This document shows, piece by piece, positions 5,124 through 34,128 of a stretch of DNA of 64,000 bases. How positions within the stretch are numbered: position 1 is the stretch's first letter; each line of letters starts with the position of its first letter. The stretch comes from Adineta vaga (lineage: Eukaryota; Animalia; Rotifera). The notes beneath the pieces are model-generated. The model worked only from the letters and a program-made list of their open reading frames with translations, was not told the DNA's origin and did no database searches. The DNA lies in the NCBI GenBank assembly GCA_021613535.1, contig CP075492.1, positions 14,643,205 through 14,707,204 on the forward strand. The letters run 5' to 3'. Both the position numbers and the translations under genes were made by a program.

Positions 5124-6152
5124 ATGTCGAGTTCAATCAATAGTTTTGTTACGAATCTAAACCTGATCTCGACTTGGATTAATCGCGTTTTTCCAGTTTT
5201 ACAAATTGTTTTTGGCACATGTGGAAATCTGTTCAACATTATCGTGTTTACTCGACCGACATTACGCGACAATCCGTGTTCAATGTACTTTTTAGCGGGC
5301 ACAATTAGTAACTTTATTGAAATTTATATGGAGATACTTTATCAATATCTTAAAAGTAATTGGAACTGGGATCCAACGAATACCAACACTATTTGGTGTA
5401 TAATACGTAACTGGTTGACATATCCTGCTTTATGTCTCGTACTATGGTTTATCGTTCTATCAAGCTTCGATCGATTTCTTATAAGTTCACATAATGTACG
5501 AATTCGTCGCATGAGTAATACATCAGCAGCTAAGAAAACAATCCTATTCACCATTTTATGTTTTTTCCTGATTTATGCACACATGCCATTTTTTTATAGA
5601 GCTATTAGACTCGGTACTTTGAACATTTGCACTGTTCAATCATCAGAATATATAATTTTTTCTAATATTTTATTTGTTATGGTTTTCTGCCTTTTACCGA
5701 TCCTATTTATGGTCATTTTTGGTACTTTAACATTTATCAACGTTCGTACAATACGCAATCGTATTAATCCACAATTCAACAACACAAGACAAGAACGTAT
5801 ACGAGCCAATGATCGTCAACTGACTAGAATGCTGCTATCACAAGTACTAATCACTACGCTACTGTCAGTTCCCTATTGTTGCATCAACATGTATAGCACA
5901 TTTGTGTTAACCTTGCTTAAAAAGCAACTTTCAACATCTGATCGAGCAATTTTCAGTCTGACATTTTATGTTACCCGAACACTTCATTTCACCAATCCTG
6001 TGATTGGATTTTACGTATATACTTTGAGCAGTTCAAAATTTAATGCTGAATTCAAACGATGCATTCGATATGGATTGAGAATCATTTTCACAACAACAGG
6101 TATCATAAAATATCTGCCACGAAGAAGGCAACAAGTACTACTCAATCTTTAA
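5124..6152 (+). CDS. Rhodopsin-like 7TM receptor (GPCR), single exon
   Basis: 7TM profile with FDRFL (DRY-like) after TM3 and NPVIGFYVY (NPxxY) in TM7, followed by a helix-8-like FNAEFKRC. The first ATG is at 5124; the track start at 5088 is TTG. An acceptor-like cag at 5078-5080 suggests a possible upstream exon or UTR intron. Confidence 0.7.
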   Translation: MSSSINSFVTNLNLISTWINRVFPVLQIVFGTCGNLFNIIVFTRPTLRDNPCSMYFLAGTISNFIEIYMEILYQYLKSNWNWDPTNTNTIWCIIRNWLTYPALCLVLWFIVLSSFDRFLISSHNVRIRRMSNTSAAKKTILFTILCFFLIYAHMPFFYRAIRLGTLNICTVQSSEYIIFSNILFVMVFCLLPILFMVIFGTLTFINVRTIRNRINPQFNNTRQERIRANDRQLTRMLLSQVLITTLLSVPYCCINMYSTFVLTLLKKQLSTSDRAIFSLTFYVTRTLHFTNPVIGFYVYTLSSSKFNAEFKRCIRYGLRIIFTTTGIIKYLPRRRQQVLLNL

Positions 6153-7197
6153 GGACAACTGGAGAAGCAAATAAGGTTCGTTCTACTCACCATCAACAAA
6201 CAATAGCGAAAACAACGATGGTATAAACATATATACTGTCACTCTCTTGTTAGGTAGAAAGGCTCTATCACATTAAATATCATCAATCGAACGTATTGGA
6301 TTGGAATTAATAATATATGCATATGATTCGATTCTAATTACCTTTATCTTGACCAATCCATATTTTATTATCTTGCCTATAGGATATGTAAATAGATATA
6401 GATTTTGATCCTTTTCCAATTGCCTGAAGGTTGTGCAAGAAAATAACAATTACTATGATCAACAGGTTTGGACATCATCAGTAGATACTCACCATTTCAT
6501 TTACAACGAAACGAATAACTCATTTGATATCTTTCTATTTGACTGATCGCCAGTTTACCACATAAATCATAAATTATCGAGGCATCTTTTCAAAGTTCAA
6601 TTTCTTTTATTCTATAAACCAGAACGATCTTTTAACATAGGATAAGCATCAGTACGTAGTGCTCGTTCGAAAATTTTCTATGAATTTAATTTGTTTTCTC
6701 GACTAAAGGGATGATTGAAGGTGTGCTTGTGTATATATTTTCTCTTCAACCATATATACACCCTCGAGGTTAATATTCTCGAGAAATGAGTCATGATGTG
6801 GATCTAATCGTACAGTGATAATACATTGGCTCCATATAATGGCGCCCTCTTTTGTTTTGTATTTGTACCATTTTTTGTTCTTGAAATAAAAATGTAGTAC
6901 TATCCAGAAACATTTTCTCAATCGGATTGCACTGAATTTATCTTTGTGACTTTGAAAAAATACGACGACCAATCTCTTATTCGTATATATTTTAGGCCAT
7001 CGACAAACATGTACAGTATAGGATTTATTTTCTTGTTTTTACTCTTTATCGTCGGCGTAGAAGTTCATAGTACGTACTTTAGTTACGCAAAGAACGTATA
7101 TGATGATGATGATGATGATGATAGTGCAAAAAATTCAATATATATTTAGATTGATACTGCTCGAGTAAAACTGCATTTGTGAAATACAATCACAAAG

Positions 7198-8379
7198 ATG
7201 GTTAATCTGGTCTTATATTTTCTTCGTCAACCAGAAACAAAAGCACTACTTTTTGTTTCTCTATCAATTCTTCTTCTACCATTATCAGCTCTTTCAGTAC
7301 CTTTAATTCCTCATTGTATTTGGGTATTTGTTCGTTCATCATATCTATGTATTGCACTTTACTTTATCGGTGTTTATTGTCTTTCACGATGGATTGCTCG
7401 TGGTGGTCAATTTGATGCATTGAAAACAAAGGATCTCAATGGAAAGACTTATTTAATCACTGGATCTGCTGGTGGTATTGGAAAGGAAACAGCTCTCGAA
7501 TTAGCGAAACGTGGTGCTAAAGTAGTTTTATTTGCACGACCAAGCAATCTTCAAGAAACAATTAATGATGTTAAAAAAGTGGCACGAGATGCTAAACTTG
7601 TAAGTGGTTATCCAATTGATTTAGCTGATTTACGTTCAATCAAAATTGGTATTGAACAATATAAAAAAGTTGAAGGCGAGTAAGTATCATATTAATCAAA
7701 GAATCTTTATATATAGATACATATATATATATATATATTTGTTATTTGTAGAAATGCTTCAATTACTGCTTTGATCAATAATGCTGGCGTCATGGCTCTA
7801 CCCTATGCACGTACTAAGGATGGTTTTGAAATGCAAATGGGTACTAATCATTTTGGCCATTTTTATCTGACTCAATTACTTCTTCCTCAATTACTTAAAT
7901 CCAAATCGCGTGTTGTTAACGTTTCATCATTAGCTCATGTTATGTGGAAAGTCCCATGCACACCTGACACGTATGCTGAACAATTTAACAAACAAACATA
8001 TAAACCTTGGAATGCCTATTCTCTCAGTAAAACAGCAAATATTTATTTTACTCACGAATTACATCGTCGTTTTCATGCACAAGGTCTTACTGCATATGTT
8101 CTTCATCCTGGCGGAGTTAATACAGGATTGGCAAGACATATAGCACTTTCATCAGTATTAATTGCACCTTTTCGATTGCTTCTCTTTAAAACACAGCTGG
8201 AAGGTGCTCAAACAAATCTATATTGTGCTGTATCAGACGATGTGGTATCAGGAAAATATTATTCCGATTGTCAAGAATTGGAATTAGGAAATCCATATGC
8301 GAATGATTCGGATCGAGCTCGTGAATGGTGGGAATATTCAGAAAAGATTGTCGCCGAAAAGATCAAAGAATTGAACTAG
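7198..8379 (+). CDS. Short-chain dehydrogenase/reductase (retinol dehydrogenase / WWOX-like), 2 exons, N-terminal TM anchor
   Basis: Exons are join(7198..7679,7752..8379), with a GTAAGT donor at 7680 and a 72 nt intron. It carries the Rossmann motif [12 protein letters not shown], the NNAG motif, and the YxxxK active site. Stop is TAG. Confidence 0.8.
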
Positions 8380-8779
8380 ACATTTGATATCTCTGTCATT
8401 ATTTTTTCGTACATGTTTATGAAATATAAAAAACAAATAACCATCATTTATTTTCTAATATTTTTATCACATTGAAACGTGAAGTTCTGCTTCATTAGTT
8501 AGAGGGAGAGAAAAGAAAATTAAAGAACACATGGGTGTACGGATGATATTTTCTTTCTAAACTCAATCGATATATATATATATATCAATGGATGAATGTA
8601 TCCTTTTTTTATTTAGACTGTAAAACATACATTTCATATTGAGAAACTTCAGAAGGTGAGTTGAAAATAGTGCAAAGAGTGTATTCGTCCATTGATCGAG
8701 TGGAAGTAAAAATATATCACTTTGATAATATTATAGAATAAACGTGATCATTGTGTCATAATCATAGTATTGACAAAAG

Positions 8780-10525
8780 ATGCCTTCATTAACAGAATCA
8801 GATAATTATTGGGAAACGGCAACAGATGATATTCGAGCGCAAATTATTACGACGTCAAATACAAACTCTAGACGAAATATATTTCAACGCATGATTGATT
8901 CATTTAAACGTGTACCTTCATCTAAAAATATTTCGATTCCAATGACGGAAACTGATAGAAGAGATGACCAAAACGATGAAGTCGAAAAAGGAGAAAGTGG
9001 TTTGCATCGAGCACTGAAAAATCGACATTTGCAGATGATTGCCATAGGCGGATCAATTGGTACTGGTCTTTTTGTTGGATCAGGTTTAGCACTAGCATCG
9101 AGCGGTCCTGGTGCACTTGTTCTTGATTTTGCCATCATTGGTTTTATGCTTTTCAATGTATGTATGGCATTGGGAGAGCTTAGTGTCGTTTTTCCTGTGT
9201 CTGGCTCATTTGCTGCTCATAGTACACGTTTTCTTGATCCTGCATGGGGATTTGCTATGGGATGGAATTATGCTCTCGGCTGGTTAATTATTATGCCTCT
9301 TGAATTAACAGCTGCTGGACTTGTAATTAACTATTGGACGACGTCGATAAATGTTGCAGTATGGATCACCATTTTTTTAATTGCACTTTTGATTATCAAT
9401 TTATTTGGTGTACGTGGATATGGCGAAATTGAATTCGTTATATCCCTCATTAAAGTAATTGCTGTCATTGGATTCATTATTCTCGGTATTATTCTAGTTT
9501 TCGGAGGTGGACCAAATCATGAATATTTAGGAGGGAAATATTGGCAGAATCCAGGTGCATTTGCCAATGGTTTCAAAGGTATATGTTCGACTTTTGTAGT
9601 GGCTGCTTTTGCTTTTGGAGGTACAGAACTAGTTGGCTTAGCTGCAGCCGAAACAGATAATCCTCGAAAGACTATTCCACGAGCCACAAAACAAGTCTTC
9701 TGGAGAATAATGATATTCTATATTGTATCATTAACACTTATCGGTTGTTTAGTACCTTATACATCTCGACGTCTTTTGAGTGGAACTTCGGCTTATGACG
9801 CGTCAGCATCACCTTTCGTTATTGCTATTGAAGATGCAGGCATCAAAGTTCTACCTTCGATATTCAATGCCATGATACTTTGTGCTGTACTTTCAGTTGG
9901 TAACTCGTCTGTTTATGGTGCATCTCGAACTTTATGTGCACTTGCTGAAAATGGTCAAGCACCAAACATATTCGCTTATATCGATCGTAAAGGTCGTCCA
10001 CTTTCTGCGGTCGCCTTATCGATGCTCTTGGGTTTCATAGCTTATATCAATTGTGCAGAAGTAGGTTCACAAGTATTTCATTGGTTACTAGCACTTGCTG
10101 GTTTGTCATCATTTTTTACTTGGAGTTCTATATGTGCATGTCATATCATGTTTCGAATAGCATGGAAAGCGCAAGGTCACACACTGGATGAACTGACGTT
10201 TGTAGCACCTTTTGGTATTTGGGGAAGCTGTATTGGTCTTTTGCTCAACATTCTATGTCTTATTGCTCAATTTTATCTAGCTATTTTTCCATTAGACTCT
10301 CCTCCAAGTGCAGAACGGTTTTTTCAAGCATATCTTGCTGCTCCCGTTATTCTTCTCTTATATGTAACATGGAAATTGTGGAAGAGATCACCATTTATGC
10401 GACCGAACACCATCGATCTGACTACTGGAAGACGTTTGCTCGACTCCCAACAGCTTATCGATGAAGAAAAAGCAGAACGTATGACTCGGCCTAGATGGAA
10501 AAGAATATATTACACACTATGCTAA
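8780..10525 (+). CDS. Amino acid permease, APC superfamily, yeast/bacterial AAP type, single exon
   Basis: 581 aa ORF with about 12 TM helices. The hallmark motif NRHLQMIAIGGSIGTGLFVGSG matches fungal Gap1-like and bacterial AroP/LysP permeases. ATG at 8780, TAA stop. Confidence 0.85.
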   Translation: MPSLTESDNYWETATDDIRAQIITTSNTNSRRNIFQRMIDSFKRVPSSKNISIPMTETDRRDDQNDEVEKGESGLHRALKNRHLQMIAIGGSIGTGLFVGSGLALASSGPGALVLDFAIIGFMLFNVCMALGELSVVFPVSGSFAAHSTRFLDPAWGFAMGWNYALGWLIIMPLELTAAGLVINYWTTSINVAVWITIFLIALLIINLFGVRGYGEIEFVISLIKVIAVIGFIILGIILVFGGGPNHEYLGGKYWQNPGAFANGFKGICSTFVVAAFAFGGTELVGLAAAETDNPRKTIPRATKQVFWRIMIFYIVSLTLIGCLVPYTSRRLLSGTSAYDASASPFVIAIEDAGIKVLPSIFNAMILCAVLSVGNSSVYGASRTLCALAENGQAPNIFAYIDRKGRPLSAVALSMLLGFIAYINCAEVGSQVFHWLLALAGLSSFFTWSSICACHIMFRIAWKAQGHTLDELTFVAPFGIWGSCIGLLLNILCLIAQFYLAIFPLDSPPSAERFFQAYLAAPVILLLYVTWKLWKRSPFMRPNTIDLTTGRRLLDSQQLIDEEKAERMTRPRWKRIYYTLC

Positions 10526-13329: not shown

Positions 13330-14024
13330 AAAAATATATTCCAATCGACACGAAAAAATCTTCGAAACTTTAAAAATCAGTATTCTGAGGCATTATGTAT
13401 ATGTCGTTTTGCGCTTATGATCTCTTGAATAAATACATGCTCGAGGGTGGTTAAGAATAAAGATATCTCTGCTTTTCAGCCATCCACATTCACATCTACG
13501 AGATGCTTGTGTATGCCGCAAAAAATAGAATACGAAGCAAGTACATGAATGAACGAATATTTCTCATTCAGGGTTTCTTTTTTATCATTTCTTGTGTTGA
13601 TTTCTCGATGTCTTCTTATACTATATAACTATATCTTTCTCCTATCAAAGGATAACATAGTTCCATTTGGTAGCGTTGAACTAATCAGATATACAATTGG
13701 TACACTTCATTGTTTGTTCGTTACCATATTTTGTTTATTTTACCCTAAGTGGTATATTTCTTATTTATTTAAAAGATGAACGATATCATGAACTTTTATC
13801 TCGTATATTCTCATGTTTTGGACATTCAAATTCAGCAGTAGATGTTCTTGTATGTAATTCTACTTTTTTTTCGATTTTTCCCATGCCGTTAATTGACATG
13901 TGCAACATCGAAGTAACTAGCCTTTTAAGTTATCATTTTTTGATATAAAAATTAGATTTATTTATTTTGCAAGAACATTGTTATAAGAAAAGAAAAATTC
14001 TATTCATTCATTAATTATCTATCT

Positions 14025-14673
14025 TTAACATTTGATTGAATATAGAAGGACATGTAAACGTGGTTCTTGTGTTGAAGAAAACCATAAATAATCACGATAG
14101 ATACTGGATGACAATGATGATATACCATAATCTTGTCCAACAACAACATTGTATTTACCAAATCTTGTACTTGAAAATTCATTAGCAATATATTGTGCAA
14201 TTTGACTACGTGTACCTTTAAATACGAATATAGAAAGGATTAATTAAGTATATCTCTTATATCAACTTGTGATACTTACCAATTTTATATCCAAATCGTT
14301 TTACAGCATCTATCATTAATTTTACAGCTAATTCTTGATCTTTATTATTCATATTCGTTTGACGAATACGAATATATGATGGTAAGAAACTGTTACTGTG
14401 AAGTGAAGAACTTGAACCACTCTTAATACTATTGAAACTATGTGATGAGTCAGAATTGAACATAGATGATGGTGATGAAGATCGTGGAGAATTATGACTA
14501 CCAAAGACAAGTGCAGAAAGTGCTGAACTTGGTGATGTTGTTGAAGGCAATGGAGCCATTGTTGTTGTTGTTGTTGATGTCTTTGATTTACCAAAGAGAA
14601 ATCCATGAGATAATGTTGATGATTGAAGAAGAATAGCAGCAACAAAAATAGATAAGATAGATGATGACATCAT
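14025..14673 (-). CDS. Dynein light chain LC8-like domain protein with long Ser/Thr-rich N-terminal region, 2 exons
   Basis: Exons are complement(join(14025..14215,14280..14673)), with a GTAAGT donor after G14280 and a 64 nt intron. The N-terminus is hydrophobic and signal-like, followed by a Ser/Thr-rich tract. The C-terminal roughly 90 aa aligns to LC8: ELAVKLMIDAVKRFGYKIG / IAQYIANEFSSTRFGKYNVVVGQDYG / LHVLLYSIKC. Confidence 0.5.
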
Positions 14674-16441
14674 GATAAATATTAATAGAATTAAATTACC
14701 TAAAATGAAGAGAAAAGACTCGATAATTTTTTATGATTATATTTCAAAATATAAATATAAGAATTTACTTACAATAAATAGTCTTATTGCTTGTATTTGT
14801 ATGTTAGGTTATAAAGTGTATTTAAATGAATGAATGAATAAATGATAAAAAGAAACACAGTTTATATACTGTCTAACTTTCTAGTATCATATAGTACAGA
14901 TGAATACATAAACAATGTCTAGATTAAATGACTATTATCCTTTCTGTTATTGTTATACGAATAGATTTAATACATTCTAGACGTAAAGAAAAGAAAATAA
15001 AGTCATCTCGTTCATTATGATATGTTCTAGGTCTTTTATCGCTATAGATAGAAAGAATGAATCGAGGGTATTCGAATGAAATGTATACAATAACTACAGA
15101 TAAATAACAGTATAAAAACAGTGTTTAACCATCATGTAGAATTTATTGTCTTTGCACCTTGTTTTCTCTTAAGTATATACGGTTGAAAACTAGGATTGTC
15201 ATGAAAAACGTTATTGATTTTCATAGAGATTGATCTCTTTTATATATGATCTGTTGACAAGTTTTCATAAAACAATCTTCCAATATATAAATACATGATT
15301 ATTAATATACGTTTGAATGTGTATTTAATTTATAATTCTGTTGAAGAGATTTTCTATTGGAAACTATAACATACGAACGGGGAAAGAAGAATAAGAGAGT
15401 GTTTATTGCAGACAAGTAAAATAAAACTATATCTTATGAAGGAATTTAAATCATACGTCGAGCAAGAATTCTTATGACATACATGAAATTGAGAAATATA
15501 TTGTAGAACTCTATTTGATTGATATGACAGGAGTATGATGTTGTTAACGTATTATATACAAAGGAATATATAAAAGACTTAGTATTTTCATTTTCTTTCT
15601 TTCTTTTTATCAGTTAATCTTATCAGCAGTCTGACAGGTAAGAATATTATATTTTTAGCTTCAAGTTTAAATCATTCGAAGCAGAATCTATCCGAAAATT
15701 AGTTCTGTCGACTTCTTCGAAAACAAAACTGATTACTCACAACGATTTGAATAGTCCAGTGTTTTATAAGTGAAGATCTTCTCTCTTCTTCTTGAACGGA
15801 TGTCAATTTTCGTCAAAGATATCTGAAGATCGTTCAGAAGTTCTATATTTTCTTCTTGGTATTTCTCCTTATCCAAAACGAATATTAATGAATTCTCTAA
15901 TTAGCTCTTTAAATATCGAAAAATAATCTATCATGTTCTTTTTTTCATAAATATCACATCTGACTGCAAATATTTATTTGTTCTTCTTCTGGGAAAAAGA
16001 GATTTGAATGAAAATATGCTTTAGATATATCAATATTATTTAAAATGCAAAGTGGATCATGGATTTTACTACTCGTATTTTTACATGATGCTACAGATAT
16101 GAACTTTTTAATATGACATAAAAATCCTCACTACTGTTTTCATGTTACATGCATCATCATGATACTATCAAAAGAAAAAGTCCACGTAGTGTGGTACATC
16201 AGATTTACCAATGAAGTTCATATAGTTGCGAACACCAATGATTGCTTATGTTTTTCTTAATTTCCTAAGGACAGTATTCATTTTCAGGAAAATATAAGTG
16301 CAGCATAAGCTTGTTTATTTTATCAGTCTTTGGATAGGTTTTCTGAAAATATTCATCACTCGTTTTTGACTCATACGTCTCCAGTTAATCTGAATACTTC
16401 TTTTCTAAGTTGATTACTTAGCGTACCTAATTTTTTTGTAG

Positions 16442-29891: not shown

Positions 29892-30263
29892 CTAATAATA
29901 ACAATAATTACAAAAACTTTCTTCATTATAATCAACTTTTCGCCATACAATGACTTCTAAATTACCTTCCATTCGTTGTTTTACTCGAAGTCCATGAGTT
30001 ACAGGGCACATATCTTTCATATTTCCATTACATGTATGATTTCCATGTTTTCGTCGATCAGCATATTTTTTTGGACAACATCTACAACTTAAAGTTCGCC
30101 GTGCAAAACCATTATTATTATATGTCCACTTGCGCCAATGTCGACTCTCAGGATTTTTCTCTCGTCGTTGACGCTTATAAGCACTTCGTGTATTGTTTCG
30201 TTGCGTACGAGCTCGAGATTTAAATTGATCAGAAACAGTATCAAATGTGTAGTCGTTTGACAT
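29892..30263 (-). CDS. Small basic Cys/His-rich hypothetical protein
   Basis: 123 aa ORF from the ATG at 30263. It contains RCCPKKYADRRKHGNHTCNGNMKDMCPVTHG, a possible zinc-ribbon-like spacing, in a highly basic sequence. No family is recognised, and internal splicing cannot be excluded. Confidence 0.3.
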   Translation of the reverse strand: MSNDYTFDTVSDQFKSRARTQRNNTRSAYKRQRREKNPESRHWRKWTYNNNGFARRTLSCRCCPKKYADRRKHGNHTCNGNMKDMCPVTHGLRVKQRMEGNLEVIVWRKVDYNEESFCNYCYY

Positions 30264-30926
30264 ATAAAATGTATTTCTGAGATATTTGAAATCATGTAGT
30301 ATAGATCTGTGTTTTTATACGTTTGTTGCGGCTTATTCATCGATACTGATGATACATTTTACAGAACGCAAAACAAAGTCAACGAAGAGGCATGCTTATC
30401 TTTCTTTTTGTTTTTCACTACATTATTTAGATAACGATGACTCATCTACTGATATATATCATGACGACATGCACTTTTGAATATAATACGATTTTCTTCT
30501 CCATACATTTTCATCCATCTGTTGCAATACCAATTTTTTTTATTCGTGATAGGATATGAAATGAATCATAACAATTGGAATCATTCAAGAAACAAAGTTC
30601 AGTTGATGCATTTCGTAGATGATACGGTCGACTAGAATAAACGAATTATTTTTCACATATGTTTGTTAAACTTTGTAATTTATCATTACAACATTTTTTT
30701 TAAAATACTTCCACTGAAGAAGACAAACGGTGACTATTCTTATTAGTTTTTGATGGAGGATTACACATATATTCATACAATTGAAGCATATTAAACAACT
30801 TGACATGTCGTGATAGTTTAGCAAAGAGATACGATGCTGCGTTTTTTTTATTGAGCACAGTGCAAAGTATAAGATTCTCGATCTGTGAAGGATTGATTTT
30901 AGTTTTTTTTTCGCTTACAAATTTTA

Positions 30927-30932
30927 ATAATA
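30927..30932 (-). terminator. AATAAA polyadenylation signal downstream of truncated MVP gene
   Basis: The minus-strand aataaa lies about 125 nt 3' of the MVP TAA (31058-31060), in A/T-rich non-coding sequence. Confidence 0.3.
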
Positions 30933-31057
30933 CAAATAAACGCTTCTTTATTTAGTTTTGAAAAACAGTATTTTAACTATTACACGAATTTTATCGAAAG
31001 AAACGACGGTAAAAAAACCAGAGAGCAAGTAAAAACACACCACAAAAGAACACTGGC

Positions 31058-31898
31058 TTATTTCTCGTCAGTTTTTGACACCAAAAAATTACGGCTAAGT
31101 AGGCAATGTGGAACAAAGAAGCTACTATCCTTCCGGATATCATTGAGATAAGTAAAATGTTCATCGGGTCCTAAGATAACTAATTCGGGTCCAAAAACAA
31201 TTCTTGATTGTTTATTTTTATAATCATAAATTTGAACAACTTCATTTTGTGGAACACAATACGTGACGACTTTCCATCGATCACGTTTTGTTGTTTTTGC
31301 ATTTGTATTATTGGAATTGATATATCGATTAACTAATATATCTGCTTGAAGGAATCCTTCAATTTGTAATGGCAAATCTTTTTCCCATAATTCTTCATGT
31401 TCTGTCAGTAAATAAGTGTTGCCAATAATTGCTCGAACACGACCTGTTTTCGTATCACGTACATAGATACCTTCATTTTCGTCTAGATCATAGAAAAGAG
31501 AATATTAGACATATTTAATAATCTAAAGAGGCGTAATCTACCTAATGGTATCGCTTTTCTTCGTAATAACACTTCAACTTGTGTCGGAGGAATATATTCG
31601 CGTGGTCCTCGAAGAAGCCATCGATCACCTTCAATGACAAAAAATTAATCATTGAAATCAAACATATATTTACGAATTTACCTGCCATCCGTGTTACTTT
31701 ATCAATATCATCTTCAAATGATTCTGTACATCGAAGAATAAGACCTTCATCTTCTTCCAAGATATATATTTCTTGAATACCTTTTTCTAATTGTTCATTC
31801 GGTTGTAAGAAGAAGGATTTTTCACCGATAATTAACTTCTTCTTTCCTAATTGATTCTTTCCATCAACTTCAATAAAAAAATCATTATTATATAACAA

Positions 31899-31934
<36 letters not shown>

Positions 31935-32945
31935 TACCTCCAACTGGATTTAATATGACACAATATTGTCTCGAATTTAAGACTGTAATATCAATAGTCT
32001 TAATAAGTTCTTCATAGACATTTAAAATATGTGTTTCTGTTTGTTCGGATGTGATTAACCATTCATCTCCATTATTTCGTGTTTGACTAAAATCATCTGT
32101 AAATGTATTCAACGCACGTAAATGCAATGCTCTTTTATTCGTTAAGATAAAAGCATCTTCAACATTAACAACTGTTTCATGTGCCAATGGTGTATAAGCA
32201 CCTGGTTTTTTCACTAACCACTGTTCACCTGTTACACGACGCTGACCAAGACGATCGATAAGTTCTTTTTTCGCACTTAATTTTATTGCTTGATTTGGAC
32301 CTATAATCGTTGCATTGATCTGTTCTTCAATCGTTACTTCTTTACGTGGAATATAAGTACCTTAAAAATATACAAACAAGTTTTCAATCGTTTATTGTAT
32401 AGATAATAATAATGATCTACCTGGTCCTTCGAACAACCATTCATCACCTGCTTTTCGTTGTTCACTATGATCATCAAAATCAAGAATAGCTTTTAATCGT
32501 AAAGCTGAATTAGCTGCAACATATTTCAATGGTGTGACCGGCTAGAATGTGATCATTTTCAAAAAGTTTATCTTCTCAATAATAGACATAAACATACTTG
32601 TTTTAAAACTTCACCAGGATATAAAGGAAACGGTTCTTGATAATCATCATGCAATCGAATATTTACATTCGCATGTGATAATTTAATTTGTCCATTTTTA
32701 TCAAATTCGACTTGTCCTATTTGATTTTTAATCACAGGATTTTCCACAATACAATAATGTCTCGGTGGTATTGTAATCATTTTTTCTGGCCCAAAACAAA
32801 TCGTTTCATTATCTTGTTTGAAAAATATCTTCGGTCCAATTTCTAAACGTGTTACACTTATATTCTGATCTAATACATGAATATAATAAAATGGTGGAAT
32901 ACGATAAATAGGACCAGTTTGGGATGAGATATTTTTCGATGACAT
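31058..32945 (-). CDS. MVP: Major vault protein, repeat-domain-only (C-terminally truncated) copy, 6 exons
   Basis: Exons are complement(join(31058..31482,31542..31628,31682..31867,31938..32360,32421..32541,32598..32945)), about 529 aa. There is strong MVP identity: [110 protein letters not shown]. The frame ends at TAA after [15 protein letters not shown], where vertebrate MVP continues into the shoulder and cap-helix domains. Confidence 0.8.
31903..31930. repeat. (TA)n microsatellite inside MVP intron
   Basis: About 14 TA units. Shorter (TA)n runs also occur near 7717-7736 and 8573-8588. Confidence 0.9.
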
Positions 32946-33195: not shown

Positions 33196-34128
33196 TTATC
33201 CATTAAGTTCACCGGTTAAAATCCATCTAGTTCCTTCTTCATCTAATTCTTCTCTTGCTCGCTGTAGATATATCTCACTGTCTTCATCTGTTAATATTCC
33301 TTTCCAACGATCATTCGTTCCTTGACAAAAAAATGACTTAGCGCCACCTAAAAACTGTTCTTTTTCTACCATTTTATCTGCATTTGTTTTCATATAATTA
33401 AATGAACAATGTTCTAAAATATCATTCCATCGTAAAGGATCAATATCAATATTAAGAAATGTTGCAATTCGTTTGATTTCATTTGGTAAATCTTTTTTTA
33501 ATTGATAATAATGAACTAAAAGTATATTTGGTAAATGACGCATATTCCACCAAGATTTTATATATGTGAAAAATGATGTTTCCGATTGAGCAACAATATT
33601 TGATTCAAAAAGTTCATTGACAGAGTTCGGTTTGACAACACCTTCGGAAGTACCATTTATACGATGATTATAAATACTACATGCAACATCACGTCCGTCA
33701 CGAGCAACAAAAATATATTTGGCTTTCGATGAGAAGAGAAGTGCATCAAATGGTAAATGACTTTTAATAAATCGTCGATGAGTTTGTTGTTCTAAAATTT
33801 CGAGAACTTTCTCATTCGAACCATATTTGTCTTTATTGAAACGAAAATCAAGCCATGGTGAAACATCCTTTACATTGATAGACTCACTGCCATTGAATAT
33901 TAATTGACCAACGATTTGTTGCATCCATGTTGTACCACATTTTGGAAATGTGTCGATAATAATATCATTATCACGATATTGAAAATGATTCCATAGTTTG
34001 GAATCAAACCAAAAATTTTCAAGTTCGATTTTTTTCCTTGGATATAAAGTGTAGATGTCAGACATTGTTCTCTTGTTAACGAAATGAAAAAGAATAGTTG
34101 TTGTTTTAAAGATTTCAAAAGGTAACAT
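33196..34128 (-). CDS. Cytosolic sulfotransferase (SULT family), single exon
   Basis: It has the PAPS-binding 5'-PSB motif TFPKCGTTWMQQIV, the 3'-PB region RDGRDVACS, and SULT-like C-terminal conservation. The ATG is at 34128; an alternative start (MSD) lies 21 codons in. Confidence 0.85.
   Translation of the reverse strand: MLPFEIFKTTTILFHFVNKRTMSDIYTLYPRKKIELENFWFDSKLWNHFQYRDNDIIIDTFPKCGTTWMQQIVGQLIFNGSESINVKDVSPWLDFRFNKDKYGSNEKVLEILEQQTHRRFIKSHLPFDALLFSSKAKYIFVARDGRDVACSIYNHRINGTSEGVVKPNSVNELFESNIVAQSETSFFTYIKSWWNMRHLPNILLVHYYQLKKDLPNEIKRIATFLNIDIDPLRWNDILEHCSFNYMKTNADKMVEKEQFLGGAKSFFCQGTNDRWKGILTDEDSEIYLQRAREELDEEGTRWILTGELNG

Follow-up and report, generated by a model that had tools for sequence, protein, structure and literature searches.

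The function of vaults is a long-standing question. Canonical major vault protein (MVP), the subunit of the rat and human vault shell (PDB 4V60, 11DR), consists of nine N-terminal repeat domains (R1-R9) followed by an SPFH-like shoulder domain (PF11978), a cap-helix coiled coil and a cap-ring, and vaults reportedly cannot assemble without the coiled coil (van Zon 2002, as cited in PMC3762200). Through its shoulder domain, MVP is structurally related to the SPFH proteins (PMC13100048), whose cages (stomatin, prohibitin, flotillin, erlin, HflK/C) are oligomeric wall-formers that a hydrophobic or transmembrane element at one end of the chain tethers to membranes. In Dictyostelium, vaults were seen by cryo-tomography to touch endoplasmic reticulum and nuclear-envelope membranes at shoulder height, and the authors stress that vaults have no known membrane-binding motif (Geissler et al. 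2026, PMC13100048). Here we describe an MVP gene of different architecture on the minus strand of a 64,000-nucleotide (64 kb) stretch of the bdelloid rotifer Adineta vaga (GCA_021613535.1, contig CP075492.1, positions 14,643,205 to 14,707,204; hereafter the window). This gene, which we call short MVP, keeps all nine repeat domains and has a two-helix hydrophobic tail in place of the shoulder, cap-helix and cap-ring. We consider it, with a probability of roughly 0.75, to be a conserved, stress-induced, cap-less MVP paralogue with a membrane-anchor tail, frameshifted in the A. vaga assembly.

The gene lies in AT-rich DNA (~31% GC) and was located by five collinear minus-strand tblastn matches to human MVP residues 7-499 (window 32909..31142; 50-60% identity), and residues 500-893 gave no tblastn match anywhere in the 64 kb. 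Exon 1 (32598..32945, 348 nucleotides (nt), a length common to the orthologues) opens with the ATG at 32943-32945 and encodes repeats R1-R2; it is followed, across introns of ~55-70 nt, by exon 2 (32421..32541, 121 nt), exon 3 (31938..32360, 423 nt), exon 4 (31682..31867, 186 nt) and exon 5 (31542..31628, 87 nt), all five placed by exact splice mapping to P0001. Exon 6 as annotated spans 31061..31482 and runs into TAA at 31060-31058, and its MVP-homologous part (R8-R9) covers 31142..31482, as delimited by the end of the tblastn match at 31142 and by DNA alignment with the orthologues. The spliced product of 529 amino acids (aa) is 100% identical to the NCBI entry "hypothetical protein I4U23_015588 [Adineta vaga]". 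Pfam recognised Vault, Vault_2, Vault_3 and Vault_4 (PF01505, PF17794, PF17795, PF17796; E-values from 2e-64 to 9e-15) and gave no match to the shoulder domain PF11978, and in a phmmer search against PDB, residues 12-502 of the protein aligned to MVP residues 6-499. An earlier note made from the window sequence alone had proposed a six-exon repeat-domain model ending at TAA 31058-31060, with the shoulder and cap part (~350 aa) absent from the locus; splice mapping, the identity to I4U23_015588 and the concordant end points of tblastn, Pfam and phmmer before the shoulder bear out each of these points.

The missing half was not found nearby. A tblastn search with the C-terminal 369 aa of a full-length bdelloid MVP came back empty both for the window and for the orthologous loci of three sister species, taken with as much as 10 kb of flank on either side where the contigs permitted, and neither the cap-helix coiled coil nor the cap-ring was found in this space. 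An SPFH/band-7 domain is likewise absent from the window protein, the shoulder being the only SPFH-like part of MVP. Canonical MVPs are present in the same A. vaga genome (P0040, P0081; FUN_011957/011958). An assembly misjoin or gap that hides the C-terminal exons has nothing beyond the truncation itself to recommend it and can be discounted for practical purposes: the window contains no Ns, collinearity with A. ricciae and A. steineri holds on either flank of the gene, and the same truncation recurs in independent assemblies of seven species.

Shoulder-less MVPs of ~526-552 aa were recovered by protein searches in A. ricciae and A. steineri and in four Rotaria species, among them Rotaria socialis and R. 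sordida. Their genes have introns at the positions seen in the window gene. The same six-exon structure was found in A. ricciae, A. steineri and R. socialis (exon lengths 348/121/423/186/87/~490), and the order sulfotransferase, short MVP, ATG27 is collinear between the A. ricciae locus and the window. The MVP-ATG27 pair is shared with A. steineri, and the neighbours differ at the R. socialis short-MVP locus; gene-neighbour conservation is confined to the Adineta loci. A. ricciae carries two copies ~22 kb apart on contig CAJNOJ010000073.1 (L001, L013), each with a guanylate cyclase (HNOB/HNOBA) gene and ATG27 as neighbours, an arrangement resembling a segmental duplication; in the A. vaga window, the interval separating the MVP gene from the sulfotransferase lacks a guanylate cyclase gene.

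In a neighbour-joining analysis of 488 repeat-region columns, the short proteins were monophyletic in 200/200 bootstraps, with Adineta and Rotaria splitting within the clade as the species tree predicts. Their sister group, also in 200/200 bootstraps, consists of two full-length MVPs of Didymodactylos carnosus, P0005 and P0031, which are 72% and 67% identical to the A. vaga protein. P0005 has the same first five exon lengths as short MVP (348/121/423/186/87), whereas the introns of canonical bdelloid MVP differ. These D. carnosus genes thus belong to the same paralogue lineage but, unlike short MVP, retain the ancestral full-length form (864 aa), in which the coding sequence passes from "INLSGS" into a normal shoulder, cap-helix and cap-ring with no intervening intron. 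Judged by exon structure, gene order and phylogeny, the window gene is the A. vaga orthologue of a bdelloid MVP paralogue. Because the short clade is monophyletic and has a full-length D. carnosus sister with the same exon lengths, the tree places the loss of the shoulder, cap-helix and cap-ring from one MVP paralogue before the Adineta/Rotaria split. Taken together, we hold these statements on identity and evolution to be highly probable. The two D. carnosus genes lie on one contig (L008) in convergent orientation, at 6001-9355 (+) and 13428-15355 (-).

The repeats are under purifying selection, with a ratio of nonsynonymous to synonymous substitution rates (dN/dS) of 0.06-0.20 over the repeat region (dN 0.10 and dS 1.09 between A. 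vaga and A. ricciae). Identity between Adineta and Rotaria is 72% for short MVP versus 88% for canonical MVP, a difference spread evenly along the length, so that short MVP evolves faster than canonical MVP yet is clearly constrained.

Expression data point to a functional gene as well. In Table S3 of a published A. vaga RNA-seq study (Moris et al. 2024, PMC10809525), FUN_013870-T1 is listed as "MVP" with only the four repeat Pfams. This gene is the window gene, because its neighbours FUN_013871 (sulfotransferase) and FUN_013866 (NmrA-like) fit the order in the window, where NmrA lies near 23.2 kb, MVP at 31-33 kb and the sulfotransferase at 33196-34128. FUN_013870 had a mean count of 1501 and a log2 fold change of 3.94 (false discovery rate 4e-75) 2.5 h after X-irradiation of desiccated animals, an induction of ~15-fold, and belongs to the core response common to rehydration and radiation (PMC10809525). 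The window gene is therefore transcribed and strongly regulated. The canonical MVPs FUN_011957/011958 are radiation-induced too (PMC10809525), and PARP4-like genes are co-induced.

These results bear directly on the two origins that the earlier note had left open, a naturally truncated paralogue or a decaying duplicate. Decay into a pseudogene would be in keeping with the loss of the C-terminal 350 aa, a frameshift at 31141 and protein evolution faster than that of canonical MVP (the 72% versus 88% identity given above). It is nevertheless very unlikely, given a repeat dN/dS this low at dS of at least 0.7, splice sites and an open reading frame intact over six exons in at least seven species, the level and induction of the transcript, and a clade older than the Adineta/Rotaria split. 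Monophyly in all 200 bootstraps, conserved exons, synteny within Adineta, the dN/dS values and inducible expression speak instead for the naturally truncated paralogue and contradict decay.

The truncation is not a simple one. After "...FTYINLSGS", at the R9/shoulder junction, the orthologues continue into a tail of ~45 residues in which a basic loop (QKLTxNK) connects two hydrophobic helices and RRF forms the C-terminus. The A. ricciae tail has 46 residues, and that of R. socialis reads LIVSLLSLVFLSILLVLRRFVTNKRIFFPSIFALILCFFLRRYI. The DNA of each of the 7 other named-species copies encodes the tail in frame, and profile searches of metagenomes added at least 14 distinct tail-bearing last-exon open reading frames. 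All but three of 21 tails measure 53-55 residues from "FT", the three outliers having 59-60. Their two hydrophobic peaks lie at constant positions around residues 10 and 35, where 15-residue Kyte-Doolittle averages are mostly 2.0-3.3; a basic loop (xSNKK) and, as a rule, a final RRF complete the pattern. An AlphaFold2 model of the A. ricciae protein P0003 placed helices at 507-528 and 530-551, with a mean predicted local distance difference test score of 62.8 (50-79 in the tail). An exhaustive profile search of 1.84 billion cluster representatives yielded ~4-6 with a match through the tail, and the tail-bearing family is small and appears confined to bdelloid-like sequences. P0250 and P0254 have divergent hydrophobic ends, possibly read-through artefacts.

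Annotation conceals the tail in four models. That of A. steineri (P0004) has a spurious intron through the tail, and those of R. sordida (P0008), Rotaria sp. Silwood1 (P0007) and the second A. ricciae copy (P0002) are joined to a neighbouring gene or mis-spliced; in the genomic DNA behind all four (loci among L005 and L011-L013), the tail is intact and in frame. The model P0009 is likewise fused to a downstream gene. These wrong 3' annotations hide the tail in public protein databases. The description of the locus as repeat-only in the earlier note is accordingly wrong for the family: every other named-species copy has the two-helix tail in frame, and in the window it is displaced by 1 nt.

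This displacement is due to a single extra base at 31141 (G on the coding strand, the minus strand; column 75 of the DNA alignment), which A. ricciae, A. steineri and R. socialis all lack. The extra G directly follows an invariant Asn codon and shifts the reading frame; apart from it, the tails of A. vaga and the three orthologues align without internal indels. In the +1 frame, which is open from 31170 to a TAA at 30993-30991 (within two codons of the stops of the orthologues), the window encodes the conserved tail as 49 residues (30994..31140 on the minus strand) with both hydrophobic helices, the basic loop and the terminal RRF. A hidden Markov model (HMM) of the tail built without A. vaga matched this frame over positions 2-46 of 46 (E=4.9e-18), and its hydropathy peaks are 2.35 and 2.37. 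Between A. vaga in the +1 frame and A. ricciae, the tail differs at proportions of 0.61 for synonymous (pS) and 0.18 for nonsynonymous (pN) sites (Fisher p=5e-6; w=0.157). With pS far above pN, this was therefore the translated frame of the tail over most of the period since A. vaga and A. ricciae separated. An AATAAA polyadenylation signal lies on the same strand at 30952-30947, ~40 nt past the tail-frame stop, which agrees with the signal noted earlier and with the poly-A site estimated near 30900-30930. The statement in the same note that the ~750 nt downstream of the annotated stop hold no coding frame fails for the first 67 nt, through which the tail frame is open to its TAA.

As annotated, the A. 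vaga protein ends in 27 residues (31058..31140 on the minus strand, including TAA 31060-31058) that are the tail read out of frame. Their maximum Kyte-Doolittle value is 1.09, without membrane-spanning character, and the 529-aa product ending in these unrelated residues would be soluble. The similarity of CLLSRNFLV in this end to CLLLGPDFF, which the earlier note took as a vertebrate-aligned segment, reflects no homology and is an out-of-frame translation of the conserved tail; the resemblance was put down to chance, since the MAFFT nucleotide register places the ancestral frame in the third, stop-containing frame. Because the tail open reading frame is intact and retains the signature of purifying selection, the extra G would be either a very recent (possibly fixed) mutation, a variant of one haplotype or heterozygous, or an assembly error.

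On a rival reading, in line with the earlier note, the functional product would be a soluble R1-R9 without an anchor, a free decoy or modifier of vaults for which the tail is irrelevant. The annotated product does stop before any hydrophobic segment, and its stop in the last exon would let the transcript escape nonsense-mediated decay, consistent with the high expression. A second short-MVP copy, on a metagenome contig (L007, 1315-1839; ENA ERZ26165376 ctg348693_4x_l; P0133), has its tail in the same relative shifted frame and ends in "...CRPKTDE" before the stop, versus "SKTDEK" in A. vaga; if real, the anchor has been lost more than once, but the contig is labelled 4x coverage and the shift may be an error. 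Length and motif are conserved in the in-frame tails of the 7/7 other named-species copies and of at least 14 metagenomic ones, and pN is well below pS even in A. vaga. A soluble, repeat-only product is thus improbable as the functional form of the family. Rescue of the A. vaga frame by programmed +1 ribosomal frameshifting or a micro-intron is more improbable still. The tail frame is intact and exactly +1, and a 31-nt GT..AG segment at roughly 31121-31091 (coordinates by eye) would restore it; however, all orthologues are plainly in frame, no slippery or stop-codon context occurs at 31141, and an intron of 31 nt would be far below the 45-121 nt of the introns in these genes and would remove most of helix 1.

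 The tail is probably a C-terminal membrane anchor, in the form of a transmembrane or hairpin pair of helices. A different role, as a self-association element replacing the cap-helix bundle, would suit its position where the oligomerising shoulder and cap-helix would start and the helix-turn-helix of the AlphaFold2 model. Its 15-20-residue segments, made up almost entirely of F, L, I and V with hydropathy of 2-3.3 and flanked by K/R, are typical of bilayer-spanning helices and would be prone to aggregate in the cytosol, which makes self-association an outside chance, slightly poorer than that of a soluble product. In its general layout, the protein would resemble tail-anchored and C-terminal hairpin proteins, which have a large cytosolic N-terminal domain, no signal peptide and C-terminal hydrophobic segments with flanking basic residues. 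Short MVP differs from tail-anchored proteins in having two hydrophobic segments instead of one, and its insertion is a prediction from sequence. SPFH cages are held on the membrane by a terminal hydrophobic element in the manner proposed for short MVP; their anchor is N-terminal and joined to an SPFH domain, whereas the predicted anchor of short MVP is C-terminal, the SPFH domain has been lost, and the MVP repeats have no SPFH counterpart.

In the proposed arrangement, the tail would hold a rod of ~500 residues (R1-R9) on the cytosolic face of a membrane, attached where the shoulder would start, with the free R1 end distal from the membrane. Membrane-bound vaults of Dictyostelium make contact at R9/shoulder height with wall and waist reaching into the cytosol, which is the geometry expected of a C-terminally anchored R1-R9. 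The Dictyostelium subunit is a full-length MVP with no known membrane motif, whereas in bdelloids this geometry would be hard-wired by a dedicated paralogue. Vault partners are possible ligands of the rod, as is the waist of a canonical half-vault (the R1-R1 junction); lateral contacts are possible too. Without a cap-helix, short MVP should not close a vault alone, because the coiled coil is reported to be essential for assembly. That it docks canonical half-vaults through R1-R1, or nucleates an open half-barrel on the membrane, is a speculative extension that we think doubtful. The suggestion in the earlier note that the truncated protein might act as a dominant modifier found no support, and the evidence favours membrane anchoring instead.

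Several points weigh against this reading. The two bases for membrane anchoring are hydropathy and a low-confidence AlphaFold2 model, and the loop and the C-terminus are both basic, leaving the topology ambiguous under the positive-inside rule. In other species pairs, the tail dN/dS is higher, at 0.28-0.60, with dS saturated. The proposed interaction with vaults is hypothetical. The tail is out of frame in the A. vaga assembly, and the A. vaga protein may truly be tail-less; no second A. vaga sequence covering the extra G was found by exact look-up or by a search with the last exon (best match 61% identity). Finally, comparison with ancestral shoulder DNA showed no significant similarity of the tail in any of the frames.

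Two routes to the tail were considered. Derivation from ancestral shoulder DNA by a frameshift was not supported: MAFFT introduced a 14-nt gap, and even in the best case 38/500 shuffles reached the observed local alignment score. A scan of all frames of the D. carnosus and canonical MVP loci with the tail HMM was likewise negative. Simple intron read-through fails for this lineage because the break falls inside exon 6 of the full-length paralogue; the D. carnosus full-length member is intronless at this point, and no downstream MVP exons are present. An alternative 521-aa model of a non-bdelloid MVP (P0042/P0047, one gene, JGI) reads past "...FTLIS" into an F/L/I-rich hydrophobic stretch, and several other truncated models stop at the same R9/shoulder spot. 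These models suggest that an intron position at the R9/shoulder junction is common in other lineages and that AT-rich read-through is a ready route to hydrophobic tails.

No MVP with such a tail or with a membrane anchor was described in the literature reached by full-text searches, and the expression study cited above (PMC10809525) was the sole paper found to link MVP and bdelloids. Short MVP offers a testable handle on vault-membrane biology and on bdelloid stress tolerance: a predicted anchor replaces everything from the shoulder on, has been kept since before the Adineta/Rotaria split, and is switched on together with the DNA-repair programme after irradiation. If the membrane-anchor reading is true, a dedicated paralogue induced by DNA damage and desiccation sets the R1-R9 wall on a membrane at the contact height observed for vaults; should it also nucleate half-barrels or dock half-vaults there, which we think doubtful, short MVP would be the first genetically encoded vault-membrane adaptor. 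The A. vaga reference with its frameshifted anchor would then supply a natural anchorless variant for comparison.

The sulfotransferase open reading frame next to the MVP gene (33196-34128, minus strand) is intronless, encodes 310 aa and lies ~250 nt upstream on the same strand. Its counterpart FUN_013871 has cyanobacterial best matches and is over-expressed in the same rehydration/radiation core response (PMC10809525). These matches suggest that the sulfotransferase was gained by horizontal gene transfer, and it may be co-regulated with the MVP gene or read through. Between the MVP gene and ATG27, a 123-aa basic, Cys-rich open reading frame (29892-30263, minus strand; MSNDYTFDTV...CNYCYY) is weakly conserved with A. 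ricciae (tblastx, 29 aa). Much of intron 3 of the MVP gene is filled by a (TA)n microsatellite of ~14 units (~31903-31930). Elsewhere in the window, the segment 58001-60000 has a local GC content of 0.39, compared with ~0.31 in the remainder.

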